In this document: positions 204-22,563 of the stretch, piece after piece
Numbering within the stretch: the stretch's first letter is position 1
Layout: each line of letters starts with the position of its first letter
Assembly: GCA_035285545.1 (NCBI GenBank)
Contig: JAYKGY010000094.1
Coordinates: 1-64,000 of the forward strand
Length of the DNA stretch: 64,000 nucleotides
Direction: 5' to 3'
Source: Snowella sp.
GTDB lineage: Bacteria; Cyanobacteriota; Cyanobacteriia; Cyanobacteriales; Microcystaceae
Program-made: the position numbers and the translations under genes
Notes under the pieces: model-generated
Told to the model about the DNA's origin: nothing
Seen by the model: only the letters and a program-made list of their open reading frames with translations
Database searches by the model: none

Positions 204-797
204 ATGCTTTTTCCGCTTCATTCACAATCGGAAGAAAAGAGTATGAAACATCTCGGCAACTTTTTTTGGGGATATCTTTCGGGGAGTTTGTTAATTGGGA
301 ATTGTCGTAATGACGAGATTCGTGAAATCTGGGCATTTTCTAAAGTTATACGCCTGAGAAAGTATGGTCGTAAAAGACTAACGATTATTCATGAACAAGC
401 CGATTTGAGTGACTCCCCTCGCTTTTTATTGACTGATGCCCATCATTGGGATGCTTCCAAGGTATTTGCGACTTGGAGTTTTCGATGGCCCGTAGAAACC
501 TTTCATCAGTTTGCCAAACAACTGGTCGGTTTTGAAGACGCTCAGCTCCGCAACAAGGAAGCGGTAAAACGCCACTTCTGTTTAAGTTGTGTCGCGCAGT
601 CTGTTCTTCAGGACGCTAGTGGTTGTGGGCAAAATTCTGAGCGGTTCAACTTTGCTGATGTTAATGAGCAAACTATTGGTCAACGTCTCTACTCCCTTTC
701 TCGTGAAGCCTTACAGCAAGTGGTGGAGTTTACTCAGACTCTATTGACTCAAGGTAAGTCTGTTAATCAAATTAGGTCGGTTTTAATGCCTATTTAA
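204..797 (+). pseudogene. C-terminal remnant of an IS701/IS4-like DDE transposase
   Basis: RFLLTD...RWPVETFHQFAKQLVGFEDAQLR resembles the catalytic-Glu region of IS701-type transposases; the first ~35 codons do not look transposase-like, so the N-terminus appears lost. Confidence 0.7.
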
Positions 798-882: not shown

Positions 883-954
883 GCCGATGTAGCTCAGTGG
901 TAGAGTAGTTGATTCGTAATCAATTGGTCGTGGGTTCAAATCCCATCATCGGCT
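883..954 (+). tRNA. tRNA-Thr(CGT); CAST homing target
   Basis: Acceptor stem GCCGATG/CATCGGC, D-arm TAGCTCAGTGGTAGAGT, anticodon arm GTTGA-TTCGTAA-TCAAT, T-loop GGTTCAAATCC; no encoded CCA. Confidence 0.95.
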
Positions 955-999
955 TTCTGTAAATTAACCCATTCTTTGTCATTGTCAACCCATTAATGT

Positions 1000-1084
1000 T
1001 GTACAGTAACAAATTATTTGTCATCGGTAACAAATTCTTGTCGTTATAACAAATTATTTGTCATCGTAACAAATTCATGATACC
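1000..1084 (+). repeat. CAST left end with four TnsB binding sites
   Basis: TGTACAG followed by TAACAAATT(A/C)...GTC repeats at 1007, 1028, 1047 and 1067 (last one degenerate). Confidence 0.9.
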
Positions 1085-1131
1085 TAAGAACGCATTTTAA
1101 TTCATCTCGAAATGGAATAAACATTAGGGCA

Positions 1132-1169
1132 AAAGCCGATGATGGGATTTGCTTTCAATCCACTCTGAA
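1132..1169 (-). CRISPR. Homing crRNA unit: 20-nt spacer against the tRNA-Thr 3' end plus the spacer-proximal part of a degenerate repeat
   Basis: 1132-1151 AAAGCCGATGATGGGATTTG is the exact reverse complement of 937-956; PAM GTT at 934-936; followed by repeat-like CTTTCAATCCACTCTGAA. Confidence 0.92.
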
Positions 1170-2666
1170 CTGGAGTTTAGACTAAAGGAGAAACTGGATT
1201 GAAAAGGCAGCCAGAAAAAAGCTCAGACTGCCAATCAGGGAAAATGAAGAAGTAACCAACTAATTCAAATCCCTAAAATGAAATGTGAATCAATCAAGCA
1301 ATTTCGTCAAGAGATATACGCAACACTAGACAAAGGAAAAGAAGCGGTATTTGAGCTGATGGATGCAGTGCTATTAAGCCAAAAAGTGTCATCCTTCGCG
1401 GAATTGTCATTATCCCCCGTATTTAGAAGAAAGTGGTCATCAATCTACGAATGTCTAGCAGATAATCGCCCTATGGCGAAACGGCAAAGAAAAGTATTAA
1501 TTAAGCAAATCCCAACAGTAGAAAGAATCCTACTGGCAGGAGACCATACAGCATGGGGAAGACGGGAAGCCAAAACCCTCAAAGACAGAACGTATGAACA
1601 TGGAGCCAAAGTCGTCTCAGGCAAACCGATAACAGTCGGTCATGGTTATAGCACGATAGCTTGGATACCGGAAGAAAAGGGAAGTTGGGCATTACCCTTA
1701 TGCCATCAAAGAATTACTAGCTTTGAAAATCCTCTCAAAAGAGCCGCCTTCCAACTTAAACAAATCTGTAAAAATCTCTCGCAAAGACCCTTGAGCCTCT
1801 GGGATAGTGAGTATGGATGTGCTAAATTTGTCCAGCAAACCGCCGACATCGCCGCCGATAAAATCCTACGCTTGCGTCCGAATTTGTGTTTGTGGCAAGC
1901 CCCGCCGCCTTATTCAGGGAAAGGACGACCGAGAGAACATGGAGATAAATTCAAACTTTCCGATACCGCCACTTGGCCCGATGCCATTGAAAGTCAAGAA
2001 ATAGATGACCCAGTTTGGGGCACAATCGAGATGAAGCGTTGGAGTCAACTTCATTTCCGTCAATCAGCCCGAATTGAGATGGAACTGATTCTTATCCAGA
2101 GAAAAGGCGATTCCCTCAAATTAGAGCAGCTTAAACCGATTTGGTTAGCCGCTTTGTTAGAAACCCCTCTTCCGTTAGCCGAATACTGGTCTCTGTATCA
2201 AAAACGATTTGCCATTGACCATTGGTATCGCTTTGCTAAACAAAGGTTGCATTGGACTATCCCTCAATTTCAAAACCTTCATTCCTCTGAGCGATGGAGT
2301 GATTTAATGCCTTTGCTGACATGGCAACTTTGGCTGGCTCGTGAGATAGTTGAGGATATCCCTTTGCCTTGGCAGAAGCCCCAAGCCTCTGATTCTTTGA
2401 CCCCTGGACGGGTTGCCCAATCGATAGGAGGAGTTTTAGCGGTGATTGGAACTCCTACTTCTGTTCCCAAACCCCGTGGAAAGTCTTTGGGATGCCCTCA
2501 AGGTCAACAACGCCTTCGGAAAATTCGCTATCCTGTCGTCAAAAAACGTTTTTCACCCAAAAAGAAGAAAGCAACTAACTCTTCTTAGCCACTAAAGCTT
2601 GATTCTATTCTTATTTTCTCAGCTTTTCTGATTGGCTGGGTTCTTTTTGCTTAGTCTAAACTCCAG
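1170..2666 (+). mobile_element. IS element (IS701/IS4-like) with 16-bp TIRs and 6-bp TSD
   Basis: CTGGAGTTTAGACTAA at 1170-1185 and TTAGTCTAAACTCCAG at 2651-2666; TCTGAA duplicated at 1164-1169 and 2667-2672. Confidence 0.92.
1278..2588 (+). CDS. DDE transposase (IS701-like), 436 aa
   Basis: LAGDHT, WDSEYG and YQKRFAIDHWYRFAKQRLHW motifs; lies between the TIRs. Confidence 0.88.
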   Translation: MKCESIKQFRQEIYATLDKGKEAVFELMDAVLLSQKVSSFAELSLSPVFRRKWSSIYECLADNRPMAKRQRKVLIKQIPTVERILLAGDHTAWGRREAKTLKDRTYEHGAKVVSGKPITVGHGYSTIAWIPEEKGSWALPLCHQRITSFENPLKRAAFQLKQICKNLSQRPLSLWDSEYGCAKFVQQTADIAADKILRLRPNLCLWQAPPPYSGKGRPREHGDKFKLSDTATWPDAIESQEIDDPVWGTIEMKRWSQLHFRQSARIEMELILIQRKGDSLKLEQLKPIWLAALLETPLPLAEYWSLYQKRFAIDHWYRFAKQRLHWTIPQFQNLHSSERWSDLMPLLTWQLWLAREIVEDIPLPWQKPQASDSLTPGRVAQSIGGVLAVIGTPTSVPKPRGKSLGCPQGQQRLRKIRYPVVKKRFSPKKKKATNSS

Positions 2667-2724
2667 TCTGAACTGGAATGCTTATAAAAATTTTACTGGT
2701 CGAACCTGTCTCTCTTGTTTCTAC

Positions 2725-3695
2725 CTTTCAACCCACCCCGAACTGGGATGGTCATTGAAACTTTCGGTGGAAGGTGTCATTGCTTTCATTGGAGTTCCTT
2801 TCAACCCACCCCAAACTGGGATGGTCATTGAAACTACAGCCCGACCAGAGGGATCGCGCCTTTACTTCGCCTTTCAACCCACCCCAAACTGGGATGGTCA
2901 TTGAAACCTCGTATTCGGCGGGATGTTCCACTGTGATTTGCTCGCTTTCAACCCACCCCAAACTGGGATGGTCATTGAAACATTTCACCCCTAAAAAGGG
3001 TAATCCCCATTCGCCCCCTTTCAACCCACCCCAAACTGGGATGGTCATTGAAATTTTACTAACAAAGCAGGGAAATAAATGAGCTTAGGCTTTCAACCCA
3101 CCCCAAACTGGGATGGTCATTGAAACCTAAAGTCGAGCAGTTCCTCGTCGCTGAGTAGCTCTTTCAACCCACCCCAAACTGGGATGGTCATTGAAACCTG
3201 ATAGAATTCCCGCAACACAACTATTTAAGGCTTTCAACCCACCCCAAACTGGGATGGTCATTGAAACTACAAATTCTGTACCTTAATGGGTTAAATAAGC
3301 ATCTTTCAACCCACCCCAAACTGGGATGGTCATTGAAAGCAAGGGTGAATAGATGGCTTTAGTTGATGCTTTTCCTTTCAACCCACCCCAAACTGGGATG
3401 GTCATTGAAACCGTTAGGGATTAAAGCCAATCCTGCGGGACTTACTTTCAACCCACCCCAAACTGGGATGGTCATTGAAACTTCCAAATGCAAGTCAAGA
3501 AGGGATTCTACCGACCTTTCAACCCACCCCAAACTGGGATGGTCATTGAAACCTATGGACAACGGATGCGCTCATGGTTTGGACAACTTTCAACCCACCC
3601 CAAACTGGGATGGTCATTGAAACATTAGGATTACCGATAGATGAAATTCTTACTTTTGCTTTCAACCCACCCCAAACTGGGATGGTCATTGAAAC
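2725..3695 (-). CRISPR. Type V-K CRISPR array, 14 repeats of 37 bp (GTTTCAATGACCATCCCAGTTTGGGGTGGGTTGAAAG on -), 13 spacers of about 33-37 bp
   Basis: Repeat starts on + at 2725, 2798, 2871, 2945, 3018, 3090, 3161, 3231, 3303, 3375, 3445, 3516, 3587, 3659; GGGTTGAAAG 3' end is typical of V-K. Confidence 0.97.
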
Positions 3696-3942
3696 TCCCT
3701 AATGATAAAATCCTGACTGTGCCAAGAATTGAAGAGAGGTTTGCGCGACACATACTTAACTTGGCCATTTTAGTTCCAATAAAATGGAACTTGACCATCC
3801 CAGAATACACTTAAACCTAGGTTATACGGGCTTCTCAGATTTTGCGCGGGGCATTTCATTAAACTTAGGCTGAACTCGTTATACAGGGCAGATTGTACTG
3901 ATCAGAGTTTGTACAGCTATAGAGCCGCGCAAAAAAGAAAAA

Positions 3943-4162
3943 GTGGATTCCTCCTTGCTCGGAGGTGATTCAGTAGCCATAACTGTGGTAAACCCACGCC
4001 ACTTAATGCTGGGTGCAACCTTATTCCTGTCCGAAGACAGCAGCTTCAGGGTGTACAGCTACTAGGGTCAGAAAGCAAAACTGTCTTCCAACAGTCAAAC
4101 TAACCCGTTTCTCATCGATCAGAGGTTTACCAAGAAACATGACCGATGGTGCTTTTAATTAA
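3943..4162 (-). ncRNA. Cas12k tracrRNA (ends approximate)
   Basis: Minus strand carries the blocks GGGTTAGTTTGACTGT, GCTTTCTGACCCT, CACCCTGA-GCTGCTGTC and TGGCTACTGAATCACC, recognisable from the ShCAST tracrRNA; lies between cas12k and the array. Confidence 0.9.
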
Positions 4163-4199
4163 TCCTAATATATTTTCAAGGTTCAGGGTTTTACCAATT

Positions 4200-6101
4200 T
4201 CATGTATGAATTCGGGCATGGTAGGCGGCGATCGCCATTACCTTTGCCTCTTCTTGGGGACTACCGCGAATTACCTGCGTTTCCTCTTCAATAACGATGC
4301 CCAGTTTAGTAGCTTGGGCACTAATATTTTCAATTAATCTGCCATAGCTCCATTGGTGGATATTGACTCGGTATTCTTTGGCATAAGTTTTTTGAGCTTC
4401 GATGGAACCAGCAATTTTTTCTTCTGCTCTGACTTGGATTTCTGATTGAACAATTTCTCTAATATTGCCTAATTTAGGGACAACAATGCTTCCTGTATGA
4501 TAGGACTGAGCTACCTGAACAATTGCTTGGGCTAAGAGACGATCTATATGTTGACCTAATTCTGATTCGCCAAACTGAGCAGAGGCTCCTTTCCTTTGAG
4601 CTTTATGACGCTCATGTGTCTGAGCTTGCTTCTGTTGCCTTTGAAGATTTAGTAAATTATAGTTTTTGCCTAGTAATTGTTTGAGACTCCGATAAGTAAT
4701 CGCTTTCCCCTTAAGACCATCGACTAAGGCAACTGTCGCAGGCTTTTCTAAACCAAAGGCGACTCCCAGAAGAATATGGGAATGTCCTTGATACAAGGGC
4801 TGGCTAGGACGCGGAAAAGGATTAGCCATTCGGATCAATGTTGAGTTTTTGCGTTGAACAAAGGATTCTTGTTGTTCGCTTAAATCTCCTTTTTCTTTCA
4901 TGGTGGTGAGTCTTTTAGTAATTTCACCCGCTTTTTCCTGACGCACTAAATCCGTTCCTTCTGCACTCCAGAAACGGGTATCAAGGGTACAATACAGGAC
5001 TAAATAATGGAGATTCCAAGGCTCACCCTTTCCACTGCCTTCTTGCCATCCAATCCGTCCAGAACGGAGCGTAAATAAGGCACTAGAATGCTGATTCTTG
5101 CTCTCCCTTTTGATCTGCTGATCTTCAAAAAAACGATTAAACCACTTCAGTTGGCGTTGATCACAATAGATCTCAAAAGAATGTTCGCTTAATCCATTAA
5201 AATGAACGCAGAGACGGCCCTTCTCATTTTTACTCCAAATTAAGTCTTCATTAGTCACAAAATCTATGGGATAAGGCAAAATTTGGGAATGAGTCAGTAA
5301 TTTATCTTGCCAAGAACGAACTTGATTGGGGTCGGTAGTGGCTGTTGTACAAGCCATAATCAATGTTTCTAGCCACCGTTGTCCCGTTAGATCTCGTCCT
5401 TGGGGAAGGCGGCCTTCGAGTTGATCAGTAAGACGTTGAGTTTTGATTTCTGCTTTCCGACGACGTTGCCTGAATTTTTTGCTGTCCTCTTTCTGGCTAG
5501 GTAATTTACAACCATTTTTTAACAAATAGGCGATCGCGGAACGAATTTGTAAGTCTTCTGTTTTTTGGTAAGCATCGAACAATAGTTTGGATAAAGAGAG
5601 ACCTTCTTTGGTTTTCTTCTCTTTCTTGGTTTTCTTAATACTTTTAGTTGGCAGAGCCTCAGCTTGCGGTGTTAAGTTCGTCAAAATATCAGAGGCTTTA
5701 GTCCGAATCTCGTCAAGGCTCAAGTCACTGAGTTGGGTCAATTCCTCATCACTTTTGAGAATTTCCAACCATTTTTTTTGACCATCCAATTGAGACTGTA
5801 AGCGTCTCTGAAGTTTAAGCCACGATTTAAAAATATATTCAACGAGATGAATGGCTGAAGTATAAAATCTTGCGGGTTGACCGATAAAACGAGGATCTGA
5901 TTTTAAAGATTTTCCTAATGTAGCAATAACCCCTGCTTTTGGCTTGCCGACTTGCCGCCACTGTTCAAAGTCGGGATGCTCCCTCACTTGGGCTAAAAGC
6001 TCATTGATAAACGGGGTATTCAATTTAGCCATCAAGTCCCAAAGATATTGACGGGAGGCTTCTTTTGCGACAAGGCGGCAGTGAATCGTAATTTGACTCA
6101 T
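4200..6101 (-). CDS. cas12k: Cas12k (C2c5) effector with inactive RuvC
   Basis: MSQITIHCRL N-terminus, QHSSALFTLRS; degenerate RuvC motifs LLGVAFGLEKP and IVVPKL; start placed at ATG 6101 rather than TTG 6113. Confidence 0.95.
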   Translation of the reverse strand: MSQITIHCRLVAKEASRQYLWDLMAKLNTPFINELLAQVREHPDFEQWRQVGKPKAGVIATLGKSLKSDPRFIGQPARFYTSAIHLVEYIFKSWLKLQRRLQSQLDGQKKWLEILKSDEELTQLSDLSLDEIRTKASDILTNLTPQAEALPTKSIKKTKKEKKTKEGLSLSKLLFDAYQKTEDLQIRSAIAYLLKNGCKLPSQKEDSKKFRQRRRKAEIKTQRLTDQLEGRLPQGRDLTGQRWLETLIMACTTATTDPNQVRSWQDKLLTHSQILPYPIDFVTNEDLIWSKNEKGRLCVHFNGLSEHSFEIYCDQRQLKWFNRFFEDQQIKRESKNQHSSALFTLRSGRIGWQEGSGKGEPWNLHYLVLYCTLDTRFWSAEGTDLVRQEKAGEITKRLTTMKEKGDLSEQQESFVQRKNSTLIRMANPFPRPSQPLYQGHSHILLGVAFGLEKPATVALVDGLKGKAITYRSLKQLLGKNYNLLNLQRQQKQAQTHERHKAQRKGASAQFGESELGQHIDRLLAQAIVQVAQSYHTGSIVVPKLGNIREIVQSEIQVRAEEKIAGSIEAQKTYAKEYRVNIHQWSYGRLIENISAQATKLGIVIEEETQVIRGSPQEEAKVMAIAAYHARIHT

Positions 6102-6168
6102 TTTATTGAACAAATCCGTTTAATACAAACATAAGTGTATTTTAACGAATTTTTATAAGATCGGCTAT

Positions 6169-6621
6169 ATGGAAAAAAGTTTTTTTAGCAGCAAAGAAGC
6201 CGCGACTTTAACGGAATGTACTTTACGCCAACTACAGTATTGGCGTGAAAATGAAGTTGTTGTACCGATAGTTGGAGCGACAGGAACAGGAAAGAGTATT
6301 TATTACTCTTATCGTGAATTAATCGAGTTGACATCGATGAGATATCTGTTGTTTGTCGGGTTGAGCTTTGATGTGGCACGGAATATTCTGCGATCGCTTA
6401 AGGACAAAGTTCCAGAATATGCAAATCCTGATATAAAAGCACGATTAATGTTGATTTTGGACACTGATTCGGGAATACTAGACTTAGTAAAATTTGACCG
6501 TGAACAGGCGATCGCGTTTCTAGATAACGGTCAGCCGATTATTCCATTGTGGTTGGATCTTATCCATCAAAAATTACAACAGCAATTAAGCAAGAAAGAT
6601 TCGATTATGTCGAATAAGTAG
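6169..6621 (+). CDS. cvkR: MerR-type CAST repressor, CvkR-like
   Basis: MerR HTH (FSSKEAATLTECTLRQLQYWRE); divergent from cas12k as in described V-K loci. Confidence 0.85.
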   Translation: MEKSFFSSKEAATLTECTLRQLQYWRENEVVVPIVGATGTGKSIYYSYRELIELTSMRYLLFVGLSFDVARNILRSLKDKVPEYANPDIKARLMLILDTDSGILDLVKFDREQAIAFLDNGQPIIPLWLDLIHQKLQQQLSKKDSIMSNK

Positions 6622-19145: not shown

Positions 19146-19670
19146 TTAATTGAACGAGGGAGACTGAAAATTTTTCTGATATTTTGCCATGTCCTGAAAA
19201 GGCAAAAAACACCGATGGCACCAACCATCAACCCATAACGAAGGAATCTTAAATCTTGCCCCACAGTTGGGACATTCCGATAACAACGTTAATTTGTGGC
19301 GATCGCAACCCTGCGTTTCCTTAAATTGCCATTCAATCTTGTGGCATGGCGACTCTACATAACAAGCCGCACACAATCGAATTGGCTCCATTTTCATCCC
19401 TATTCCAGCAGGAGGGCACATCTGCTCTAACCTATCGGTATCGACCCCTACAAGCTCAGCCAATGCCTCTAGTTGCTGCCGAGACGGAGGGGGATTAAAT
19501 CGAAATTTTTCCCATCGCGCGATCGCGCCCCCCAGTTTGGTTAACTGGCCCATCATGCTCACTGTTAATTCATTTTCCCTGCGAAATCGTCCTAAAAAAT
19601 GGCTAATGCTTTCCCCCGATAATGGCTCAACCAAAAACCACCAAGCTTGAATCTCTTGAATTTCCATCAT
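19146..19670 (-). CDS. tniQ: TniQ
   Basis: EPLSGESISHFLGRFRREN, RWEKFRFNP, Zn-finger Cys clusters CAAC/CPNC/CHRC. Confidence 0.95.
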   Translation of the reverse strand: MMEIQEIQAWWFLVEPLSGESISHFLGRFRRENELTVSMMGQLTKLGGAIARWEKFRFNPPPSRQQLEALAELVGVDTDRLEQMCPPAGIGMKMEPIRLCAACYVESPCHKIEWQFKETQGCDRHKLTLLSECPNCGARFKIPSLWVDGWCHRCFLPFQDMAKYQKNFQSPSFN

Positions 19671-20503
19671 TTATACTCTTCTGCAACTGCCTCAAGGGTT
19701 TCCAAATCTACCTTATGTAACCCCTTTTTCAAAGCTTGGATCGCGGCCTCTCGTAAAATCATATCGAGCAAACCAATATAGCCACCTGTTGCCGTTCTCA
19801 AAATGTCCAACATCTCCTTACTGGCTAAATTTGAAGCACCTGGCAACATAAATACTTTACGCTCCCAAATATCGACAGTTTGAACAAAATCATTACCAGA
19901 TAACTTACCAAAACGATGACAAGCCCGAAAACGGTTGTAGACCTGCTCATCTCTTTTAATCACTGTGTCTAAACGATCAGTTCCCACCAACACAACTGCA
20001 ATATTCAACTTATCAAAAAAATCTCTTACTTCAGCGAAGGTTTTTGCTTTTAACCGATCAGCTTCGTCAATAATCAACATTTCAACCCCACAGCGTTGCA
20101 GAACGTTAAACGCCCTTTGACGGAATTCTGTAACCGTTCCCTTTGTCATTTGATACTTTAGATGATCGATGATTGTCCAAAATAAATCTTTAGCCCCACA
20201 TTCTTGAGGAATTTGAATATAAACAACAGGGACAATGGGAGGCTTTCCTAATTCTTGAATGGGCTTGTGTCTTAATCGATAAGCATTGCACGCAATCGTT
20301 TTCCCAGTACGAGATTCTCCTACTACACGGCAAGATTGCCTCGCTTGACGTTTTCCTTCCAGCCAATTATGCAATGCTTCCACATGAGAAAGAGTAACAA
20401 TCATCTTTCGATTTAATCGTTGAATTTCATCCTGTAATTTATCGGGAGTCAATTGGAGCTGTCCCAGTTTTTCGGCGACAGCTTGTGCGTCTTGAATTGT
20501 CAT
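19667..20503 (-). CDS. tnsC: TnsC AAA+ ATPase
   Basis: Walker A GESRTGKT, Walker B LIIDEAD, DEQVYNRF. Confidence 0.95.
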   Translation of the reverse strand: MTIQDAQAVAEKLGQLQLTPDKLQDEIQRLNRKMIVTLSHVEALHNWLEGKRQARQSCRVVGESRTGKTIACNAYRLRHKPIQELGKPPIVPVVYIQIPQECGAKDLFWTIIDHLKYQMTKGTVTEFRQRAFNVLQRCGVEMLIIDEADRLKAKTFAEVRDFFDKLNIAVVLVGTDRLDTVIKRDEQVYNRFRACHRFGKLSGNDFVQTVDIWERKVFMLPGASNLASKEMLDILRTATGGYIGLLDMILREAAIQALKKGLHKVDLETLEAVAEEYK

Positions 20504-20506
20504 AAT

Positions 20507-22216
20507 TTAAAATCCGTAATCTTCTTGTAATGCTTCATAGTCGAAAACTTGAACTTTAGATAACTCAGACGAAGAAGAAGAGGGTCGTAAATCGTCCTCT
20601 TCGCGTTCTCCTACATTTGTTTTAATTGGTTGTGACGAAAGCGTTTGTTGTTCCTCCTTATGTCGTTCCTTTTTAGATTTTTTCGCCTTCGGAAACGTTT
20701 GACGATCTTTAATTTCCGACAAAATAGACCGATTGTTGACAGATTTTCCCGCTTCTCGTACCCGTTTACTACTCGCTTTTGCTTCATCTAAAGACATTTG
20801 TTCCGCCTCCAAATCCAACGCATAGGCACGAGACAAAAAAACTTCCTTATTGCTTTCACGTTGATAAATCAGAAGCATAGTAATGTCTCTAGGATCAAAA
20901 CGTAAAATAACGGTCTCTCCCGCGTAACCTGCGAGATTTTCCCCCCGATACATCAAATTCTCAAACTGGATATATCCCCCACGTTGGATTCTACGTTGGG
21001 TCTGTTTCATTAAACAAATATCTAATTCTCGTTCAGAAATGACATCAGGAGCAACAATTAAACCTGCATCCCAACGCTGAAAACGAGTTTGATCGCCCAT
21101 TCTGGCATCGATTCGTTGATTATAGTTGTCCACAATATAACGTACCAGCTTTTTCTCTAACTCTCTCAGTGTTAAGCAGGCTTCTTTCTCGGCCTCTTCT
21201 GGGCGATCCTGAACATTTCCTGCCGTATAACCTGGGAGAGTGGAAAAAAATTCCGTGTTAAAGGTATTAAAAGGACGTTCGACGATTCCTCCCTCGCTGG
21301 GACGGTCTCGTAAATGACAAACAAATCCTAACTGAACAGAAATTTGTTGAAGATGATTAGAACGAAAATCTTTACCTCCATCAGTGTAAAAATGCTCTGG
21401 CTTACCGTAAGTTGCCCATTCTTCATGTAATTGGTATTCACTACTGTAATTCTTCGGTAACATGGCATGACGCAATGCCAACGCAACCACTGTAGAACTT
21501 GGAGCATCGAAACCTAGATGAATCCCTATAATGCAACGGGAATAGGAGTCAATCACCGTTGTTAGCCAAGGACGAGCCAGTATTTCTCCATATTTATCAA
21601 CCAATAATATATCGGCACGAGTATGGTCACACTGCCAAACGTGATTGCTATATTCAACCGATAAATCAAGTACTGCGCGAGTCTTGACAGATAGTTGTGT
21701 CCCTTTCCATCCTGGGCTTCTGATACTTTTCTTTTTTTCTTGTTTTTCAATTAAAGGGTCTAGGACTCGATAAACGGTCATGTGGGATGGAGGCTCAATT
21801 CCCGATGCTAATGCAATCGCCTTTATTTTGAAAAAGACTTGTTTAGGAGTGATTCTACGGCTCCCTTTATTTCCTTCTTCATAGGTTTTGATAATGAGAT
21901 TTTGCAATTTTTCATCAATTCTAAAAGTCCCTTTATCTATCCGTTCAGATTGAATTAGTCCTTCTAACCCCTTCTCTTCCCATTTTTTAACTAACCGTTG
22001 CACTGTTCGCTTGGATACGTTAAGCTTTTCAGCCGCCTCTAACAACCGTTGCCCATAAGTTCGGCGATCGCAGGGTTCTAAAAGCTTTTGAATTATTTCC
22101 AGCTTAAGTTTTGCATCATCGGGCAATTCAGAGACAATGACGCTCTCTTCACTAAACTCATCATTAGAATGATGAATAGATGCTTGCTGAGCAGTAGTTA
22201 ATTCCTGTCCTCTCAT
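20507..22216 (-). CDS. tnsB: TnsB Mu-like DDE transposase
   Basis: VWQCDHT, YTDGGKDF, GGIVERPF catalytic triad; N-terminal HTH. Confidence 0.95.
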   Translation of the reverse strand: MRGQELTTAQQASIHHSNDEFSEESVIVSELPDDAKLKLEIIQKLLEPCDRRTYGQRLLEAAEKLNVSKRTVQRLVKKWEEKGLEGLIQSERIDKGTFRIDEKLQNLIIKTYEEGNKGSRRITPKQVFFKIKAIALASGIEPPSHMTVYRVLDPLIEKQEKKKSIRSPGWKGTQLSVKTRAVLDLSVEYSNHVWQCDHTRADILLVDKYGEILARPWLTTVIDSYSRCIIGIHLGFDAPSSTVVALALRHAMLPKNYSSEYQLHEEWATYGKPEHFYTDGGKDFRSNHLQQISVQLGFVCHLRDRPSEGGIVERPFNTFNTEFFSTLPGYTAGNVQDRPEEAEKEACLTLRELEKKLVRYIVDNYNQRIDARMGDQTRFQRWDAGLIVAPDVISERELDICLMKQTQRRIQRGGYIQFENLMYRGENLAGYAGETVILRFDPRDITMLLIYQRESNKEVFLSRAYALDLEAEQMSLDEAKASSKRVREAGKSVNNRSILSEIKDRQTFPKAKKSKKERHKEEQQTLSSQPIKTNVGEREEDDLRPSSSSSELSKVQVFDYEALQEDYGF

Positions 22217-22276: not shown

Positions 22277-22514
22277 GTGACAACTAATTTGTGAAGACAG
22301 GCAAATATCAAAAAAAAGTGCCATTCTAGAAAATGACACTTAATTTGTTAAAGGTCTGGAAAATGACATCTAATTTGTTACTGAACTCAGTAGTCATTTA
22401 ATTGTTAGAAATGCAGAAAAATAACCCTCTAATGCTTGCTGTACAAAGGTTATAAGGATTAGCAGCTTCGGCGACACGAACTTGTTACAATGACAAATAA
22501 TTAGTTACTGTACA
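22277..22514 (-). repeat. CAST right end with about five TnsB binding sites
   Basis: GACA-N-AA(T/C)TTGT-type repeats near 22279, 22334, 22364, 22473, 22491; terminal TGTACA at 22509-22514. Confidence 0.9.
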
Positions 22515-22563
22515 GAATTGTTCCGAGGCAATTGATCTGGCAACTTTTGCCGTTGGGGATGAA

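Follow-up and report, generated by a model that had tools for sequence, protein, structure and literature searches.

An insertion sequence within the degenerate repeat of a homing guide in a CRISPR-associated transposon of type V-K from Snowella

The split repeat of the homing guide

[quoted passage not shown] The homing spacer, also called the anchor or att-targeting spacer, is 20 nt long (1132–1151, minus strand) and is a perfect reverse complement of the tRNA-Thr 3' end at 937–956. Immediately 5' of it in the guide sense lie repeat positions −1 to −18 (1152–1169, minus strand, ending in TTCAGAGTGGATTGAAAG), the last 13 nt of which are identical to the array consensus at 11 of 13 positions. 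The IS follows as 1,497 base pairs (bp) at 1170–2666 on the plus strand, and on its far side, at a position defined by excision of the IS, are 19 nt that match the 5' part of the consensus at 13 of 19 positions (2673–2691, minus strand). A 33-nt spacer, the fourteenth (2692–2724, minus strand), then leads from the split repeat to the CRISPR array, a gap that would also measure 33 nt in the IS-free state.

The ends of the IS are sharply drawn. Its terminal inverted repeats, CTGGAGTTTAGACTAA at 1170–1185 and the complement at 2651–2666, are identical over 16 of 16 bp, and TCTGAA is duplicated at 1164–1169 and 2667–2672. When the IS and one copy of the duplication are removed, 1152–1169 joins 2673–2691 to give a 37-mer with 27 of 37 consensus matches, distributed as 11/13, 8/11 and 8/13 over its segments, and 33 nt then separate it from the next array repeat, which fits the array spacing. 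This is the full-length degenerate repeat with 10 mismatches that the original prediction had placed beside the homing spacer, and its coordinates held up. The cut falls between repeat positions −18 and −19, 18 nt upstream of the homing spacer, which now lies 1,536 nt from the array, with the transposase gene running antisense to the guide, again as had been described. Because the rebuilt 37-mer resembles the consensus and sits in register, the homing guide is the former degenerate terminal repeat-spacer unit of the array.

The likeness of the severed 19 nt to a repeat could in principle be fortuitous, or the IS could have been misassembled, and the genome is indeed a draft of 151 contigs in which a single full copy of the IS was assembled. 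We consider either possibility extremely unlikely. The position of the severed part was set by excision of the IS and not searched for, its register is correct, and only 11 of 122,424 other 19-mers in the window reach 13 of 19 matches (a background of 9e-5). The duplication and the inverted repeats are perfect. Among the sequencing runs that we used (X1 to X9), X1 yielded an independently assembled contig (23.7 kb, depth 15.2) that covers 918–2797 with 0 differences and with a depth equal to that of the flanks, and because this contig crosses both IS junctions without differences, the junctions are real. X1 is probably the source sample, which makes it a test of the assembly and not an independent population; the small-share runs X2 to X9 are no evidence on habitat.

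Since most of the copies seen have A and T next to their ends, the IS may also be read as 1169–2667, in which case the inverted repeats measure 17 bp and the duplication is the 4-bp CTGA. Both parses give the same empty site. The direct repeat around the IS is in fact 11 nt long (TCTGAACTGGA, 1164–1174 and 2667–2677), since the IS opens with a five-base sequence that also stood directly after the insertion point. As had been noted before, these five bases replace the displaced ones exactly, so that 23 spacer-proximal nt are unchanged with or without the IS. The five-base match may have arisen by chance (about 1 in 1000) or may point to a target preference; it is absent at the insertion points of two relatives of the IS, in loci L085 and L082.

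The transposase gene of the IS is intact (1278–2588, plus strand, 436 amino acids) and belongs to the NF041680 family (526.9 bits against a cut-off of 440; Pfam DDE_5, 2e-20). With the IS701 models the transposase reaches 62.3 and 26.7, below the respective cut-offs of 170 and 150, and is by these scores only distantly IS701-like. Besides the single full copy, the genome contains a solo left-end remnant on another contig (C72), in which homology begins exactly at CTGGAG, and copies that are 90–95% identical in runs X2, X3 and X9 diverge from the window at 1169–1171 and 2666–2668. The end (A)CTGGAGTTTAGACTA is common to more distant copies on Calothrix and Allocoleopsis plasmids, with which the IS shares 67–71% DNA identity. 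All three sets of copies bear out the ends assigned to the IS. Cyanobacterial ISs of the NF041680 family thus have in common with this one a transposase above the cut-off, (A)CTGGAGTTTAGACTA ends and short flanking duplications, whereas the IS in the window is single-copy, is 67–71% identical to the plasmid copies and carries a complement of the repeat remnant that they lack.

Mapping further copies, which the original prediction had proposed as a route to target preference, did recover copies, but no common target motif emerged from them. The flanks TCTGAA in the window, TAAGTGA in L085 and CAAATA in L082 share no motif, and flanking repeats themselves vary, being 7 bp in L085, 6 bp in one of three Calothrix copies and absent in the other two. 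Nothing in these sequences suggests that the IS seeks out CRISPR repeats. About 350 nt separate a cas6 gene from the relative in L085 (NC_019740.1, an Allocoleopsis plasmid; 255–1939), the copy with the 7-bp flanking repeat.

The host transposon and its CRISPR RNA module

The tRNA-Thr gene (anticodon CGT; 883–954, plus strand; ARAGORN, Rfam tRNA 73.9 bits) is the attachment-site gene of the CAST, is oriented toward the transposon and is the sole tRNA in the window. A protospacer adjacent motif (PAM), GGTT at 933–936, and the 20-nt anchor protospacer at 937–956 together occupy 933–956 on the plus strand, the latter as a perfect 20-nt inverted match to 1132–1151. The array-side CAST end, TGTACAGTAAC..., spans 1000–1079, begins with TGTACAG at 1000, 63 nt past the PAM, and contains three GTAACAAATT/TAACAAATTATTTGTCATCG repeats. 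A comparable end was found at 22472–22514, and the tnsB-side end, ...TTACTGTACA, is assigned to 22440–22512 by its match to the opposite end. With its perfect 20-nt match, GGTT PAM, PAM-to-end distance of 63 nt and adjacent tRNA gene, the unit qualifies as an att-targeting guide. In published V-K homing layouts the PAM is GTN and the PAM-to-end distance is 46–82 nt, averaging 62 nt for V1 systems (PMC9938897, PMC12416283), and the PAM, protospacer and 63-nt spacing seen here agree with these values.

The cas12k gene (4200–6113, minus strand) is intact, encodes 637 amino acids and is matched by NCBIfam NF038191 over profile positions 1–629 of 629 (935.8 bits against a cut-off of 150). Divergent from it lies a MerR-type regulator gene (6169–6621, plus strand; Pfam MerR_1, 2.9e-11) in a CvkR-like position, a MerR-type gene divergent from cas12k being the arrangement described for CvkR (PMC9938897). 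At the other end of the transposon, a Pfam scan that covered three consecutive open reading frames (ORFs) from 22216 to 19146 identified a tnsB-tnsC-tniQ operon, all open and on the minus strand: tnsB (20507–22216; Mu-transpos_C/rve/HTH), tnsC (19667–20503; TniB/AAA_22) and tniQ (19146–19670; TniQ). There is no tnsA among them, although no search aimed at tnsA was made. Comparison with relatives gave no empty attachment site, since only 74–139 nt around the tRNA gene were in common and nothing matched the flank from 22513 onward, and no synteny with same-genus relatives extended beyond the tRNA gene on either CAST flank. Upstream of the tRNA gene, an ORF at 204–797 (plus strand) encodes a C-terminal fragment of an IS701-family transposase, with every score under the family cut-offs; it is a second, decayed IS nearby.

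The CRISPR array (2725–3695, minus strand) comprises 14 repeats (37 nt, ending in GTTGAAAG) that enclose 13 spacers, gives 14 matches to Rfam CRISPR-DR15 and has a start-to-start repeat spacing of 70–74 nt. The array repeat that neighbours the split terminal repeat already has one substitution. In the four sequencing runs in which it was followed, the array interior has little or no cover, except for a repeat-collapsed joint from 2797 to 3659 in X1.

Between the array and cas12k lies a putative region for the trans-activating CRISPR RNA (tracrRNA), with motifs common to related loci; its limits, 3931–4165 on the minus strand, are approximate and were drawn from the description in PMC9938897. 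It matched no Rfam family. CUUUC at 4071–4075 complements repeat positions −1 to −5, and AAUCCAC at 3943–3949 complements GUGGAUU of the homing repeat and is followed directly by a T-run at 3931–3942. CUUUC and 3'-terminal anti-repeat motifs are also found in the single guide of ShCas12k (bioRxiv 10.1101/2021.07.07.451486), whereas the Snowella locus is a natural dual-RNA system known from its DNA. AAUCCAC is a perfect complement of GUGGAUU in the remnant and forms a G:U pair with GUGGGUU of the array repeats. The idea that the tracrRNA favours the homing remnant over the array repeat is not borne out by the duplex energies, −5.3 kcal/mol for the remnant and −6.8 kcal/mol for the array repeat. 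Between the T-run and the array, TCTGGGATGGTCAAG at 3790–3804 (minus strand) complements the 5' half of the array repeats over 12 nt and may act as a second anti-repeat for the processing of precursor CRISPR RNA (pre-crRNA).

Homing guides in related elements

How much of a repeat a V-K homing guide needs can be gauged from published work. A single guide for ShCas12k is active with 14 nt of repeat only, in which positions −1 to −5 pair with tracrRNA 87–91 and −6 to −14 with 211–218 (Xiao et al. 2021, bioRxiv 10.1101/2021.07.07.451486). Att-targeting guides are described as about 13 nt of repeat with a 17-nt spacer (Hsieh and Peters, bioRxiv 10.1101/2021.02.06.429022), and Ziemann et al. 2023 (PMC9938897) put the homing remnant at about 12 nt and call it "usually clearly separated" from the array. 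The part of the Snowella repeat that was kept holds all of the tracrRNA-pairing nucleotides. Because the cut spares −1 to −18 and V-K guides keep about 12–14 nt of repeat, the guide scaffold would survive the IS insertion, a conclusion drawn from the anatomy together with these reports. The original prediction had offered a natural knockout of homing as one outcome, and this does not follow from the anatomy, in which the tracrRNA-pairing repeat positions −1 to −14 are untouched.

For comparison, we sampled 121 genomes of the order; 31 of them, counting that of the window, have Cas12k relatives, and 20 downstream regions were fetched, of which a 620-nt one (L081) lacked a TGAAAG-terminated unit and was excluded, leaving 19 for analysis. 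In 13 of these 19 there is a unit whose spacer matches downstream DNA by a GTN PAM over 13–22 nt, mostly 17. Ten loci have both an array and a homing unit, and in these conservation is confined to the final 13 nt of the homing repeat: there, 8–13 of 13 positions agree with the array repeat of the same locus, and upstream the figures range over 1–8 of 11 and then 1–13 of 13. Only one related locus, L066, has a full-length homing repeat. In L070 the homing unit stands within the array, and L067, L074 and L078 have no array.

The gap between array and homing unit is filled in different ways. In L066 and L072 it consists of decayed repeat-spacer units that are fully in register, and in L077 the register is partial. 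Two repeats before the homing repeat of L066 (genome G043, 753–971) end in TAAAA and GAAAA instead of GAAAG; these units are probably dead, and the homing unit keeps GAAAG. In L063, L068 and L075 the gap contains a tracrRNA-like module whose 3' hairpin leads straight into the remnant. In L063 and L068 the module is a second copy, as a tracrRNA in its usual place, between cas12k and the array, is present as well. The modules joined to the homing unit are all cas12k-sense and lie at about 908–1146 in L063 (G025), about 920–1108 in L068 (G079), about 1083–1234 in L075 (G131) and up to 395 in L074 (G058), and in all four the module reaches the remnant and homing spacer via a short AT-rich loop. 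Such a module-remnant-spacer unit resembles a naturally occurring single-guide RNA reserved for homing. In a further V-K CAST from a same-genus genome, L098 (G001:C102, 4233–6370), about 2 kb separate the homing spacer from the transposon end at a tRNA-Gly gene, and the insert contains a 482-amino-acid ORF with a serine-recombinase-like N-terminus, as judged by eye. Going by L098, the array-side corner of a V-K element is tolerant of insertions elsewhere too.

These data fit a descent of homing guides from array termini, in agreement with the placement described by Hsieh and Peters, because the related loci show intermediates with decayed in-register repeats. The origin of delocalised CRISPR RNAs (crRNAs) is called unclear in a 2024 review (PMC11656645), and the original prediction had proposed that IS insertion creates them. 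At the present locus that proposal stands, as far as the layout goes; elsewhere it fails, with an IS in the gap at none of the 13 related loci. Insertion of an IS therefore looks like an occasional and not the usual route of delocalisation. Saito et al. 2021 are reportedly a further source on the delocalised crRNAs of V-K CASTs.

Set against the att-targeting units already described (bioRxiv 10.1101/2021.02.06.429022; PMC9938897), the Snowella unit has the same GGATTGAAAG-ending remnant and tRNA-3'-end spacer, the same GTN PAM, the same 63-nt distance and the same position between array and transposon end. It differs in that its remnant appears to be a former full-length, in-register terminal repeat cut by an IS, in that its match is 20 nt and not the usual 17, and in that an intact 1.5-kb IS separates it from the array where decayed array or spacer DNA does so in the others. 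A second case of an IS in the RNA module of a CAST is the V-K_V2 element of Anabaena sp. PCC 7120, in which an IS5 element of the IS1031 group breaks the tracrRNA gene, an event that the authors treat as degradation (Ziemann et al. 2025, PMC12416283). Unlike that case, the hit in Snowella is in the dispensable 5' part of the repeat and spares the functional nucleotides. In the literature searched, no V-K homing repeat is described as interrupted by an IS, although the supplementary catalogues of Hsieh and Peters or of Ziemann and colleagues may list such loci. The insertion is a new instance of an ordinary kind of mutation in a well-described element and guide.

Guide supply after the insertion

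The reading that we favour, with a probability of roughly 0.55, is a recent and tolerated IS hit after which the guide stays encodable and its supply is probably lowered but not abolished. An intact, single-copy NF041680 (IS701-like) IS would recently have entered the degenerate terminal repeat of an otherwise intact V-K CAST, and would have left the guide gene as a lone 18-nt repeat remnant with a 20-nt spacer, 1.5 kb from the array. The resulting layout would be the truncated repeat-spacer, or delocalised crRNA, arrangement that is already typical of V-K elements. With the tracrRNA-pairing positions −1 to −14 intact, the guide could still form if it is transcribed, and a transcript would now have either to read through the IS, in the sense opposite to the transposase, or to arise at the IS end. 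Transcripts that contain the IS end are predicted to have their remnant sequestered by a complement inside the IS, which would reduce guide supply. An integrated element is expected to persist without a homing guide, and because it needs none to persist, the hit would be a tolerated, near-neutral mutation and not an adaptation.

The predicted sequestration rests on a 10-nt complement of the repeat remnant, UUUUCAAUCC in the guide-sense RNA, at 1196–1205 (minus strand), 27–36 nt within the IS, which came to light in folding. In an 88-nt transcript with 46 nt of terminal IS sequence, the probability of being unpaired, P(unpaired), is at most 0.03 at 11 of 13 positions in the remnant; without the IS it exceeds 0.6 at 6 of 13. 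The masking duplex is predicted at −14.1 kcal/mol, compared with −11.6 kcal/mol for the tracrRNA 3' end, and the remnant is accordingly predicted to be masked in transcripts that take in the IS end. At the DNA level 1196–1205 is a 10-nt inverted copy of 1152–1161 with 9 of 10 identical, a likeness whose significance is post hoc, and on the plus strand the IS at this point resembles a V-K repeat end plus one extra A (TGGATTGAAAAG).

A clean knockout would result if the guide had depended on read-through from the promoter of tracrRNA and array, or on promoter activity within the AT-rich 5' half of the repeat that the IS has severed, and is now no longer made or is fully masked; homing to tRNA-Thr in a new host would then be lost. 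The predicted pairing of the remnant with the IS-internal complement is in keeping with such a loss, as are the 1.5 kb of antisense IS that now separate array and guide and a TAAAAT motif, read by eye, at the junction of spacer and severed repeat. Because a V2 relative makes a joint tracrRNA-array precursor (PMC12416283), guides at array ends plausibly rely on read-through. Yet the repeat nucleotides known to be necessary remain intact, no terminator-like site is predicted on the minus strand within the IS, and in most related loci, too, a distance of tens to hundreds of nt separates the homing unit from the last well-preserved repeat. To our knowledge cyanobacteria lack Rho-dependent termination, which makes long read-through plausible. 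On balance we regard a complete loss as possible but rather unlikely.

The insertion could instead have brought about a rewiring, also raised in the original prediction, and an adaptive one: an outward promoter in the IS end would make the guide as a short primary transcript that is no longer tied to the array or its regulator. A −10-like TAAACT lies at 1174–1179 in the minus sense, four nt inside the IS end, with a purine 7–8 nt downstream at 1166. A transcript from 1166 is predicted by folding to evade the masking hairpin, and a start near −15 would give a repeat part of 15 nt, the length of natural remnants. The TAAACT box is weak, however, with a poor −35 region and without a TG extension; the promoter scan did not call the site, and the case consists of a single locus, none of the 13 related homing units adjoining an IS. 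Rewiring of this adaptive kind is improbable. A bolder reading, which we hold to be quite doubtful, is that the homing guide has become IS-controlled, with a start near −15 from the IS end yielding guide, longer transcripts being masked, and hits in the dispensable 5' part of terminal repeats forming one route of delocalisation. If this were true, homing competence would hinge on the transcription start or on excision of the IS, and homing would be uncoupled from the regulator-controlled promoter of tracrRNA and array.

Several observations weigh against a tolerated hit in an otherwise working element. CAST insertion is expected to duplicate 5 bp of target, and the sequences flanking this CAST do not match (AATGT at 995–999, GAATT at 22513–22517); the flanks may have been rearranged after insertion, and the present mobility of the element is unproven. 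The IS-internal complement is absent from the IS relatives that were read and may be there by chance, and the hairpin is a thermodynamic prediction. The promoter scan of the guide strand over 900–4250 called no promoter-like site, even for the tracrRNA, and with 2 sites overall against a mean of 5.5 in shuffles it is uninformative. For the units that they describe, Hsieh and Peters report no conserved motif outside the homing unit (bioRxiv 10.1101/2021.02.06.429022). X9, the sole RNA run, yielded a contig from a relative that is 90–95% identical to the IS, along with dispersed tracrRNA-like fragments from other organisms, and is uninformative on the copy in the window.

To these is added that no IS-free allele was found, so that the rebuilt repeat is a reconstruction and not an observed state. 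The search that the original prediction had called for was made in genomes of the order, in metagenome contigs and in the sequencing runs, and came back empty in each. A 290-bp query that runs from tRNA gene to remnant matched 41 of 41 genomes (the window's own included), with the same-genus genomes G001 to G005 matched by the tRNA part only, and a 21-nt pattern across the spacer/repeat junction occurred in 1 of 401 genomes of the order, namely the window's own. Two metagenome contigs matched the junction pattern, and having neither a transposon end nor an array they were set aside as chance matches. In the run index X1 alone has at least half of the words (a share of 0.74), and no joint that skips the IS was found there, though contigs drop rare variants and may have missed an IS-free allele carried by a minority. 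The contig of the closest Cas12k relative (L024, 89% identical, in the same-genus genome G001, which is the same as G414) stops 440 nt after cas12k, and a matching transposon end, on contig C96, stops 16 nt before the expected guide position.

The ancestry of the guide as the last unit of the array is directly legible at this locus, which is in effect a natural experiment on how a V-K homing guide is transcribed, how it is matured and how much of its repeat is needed in vivo.

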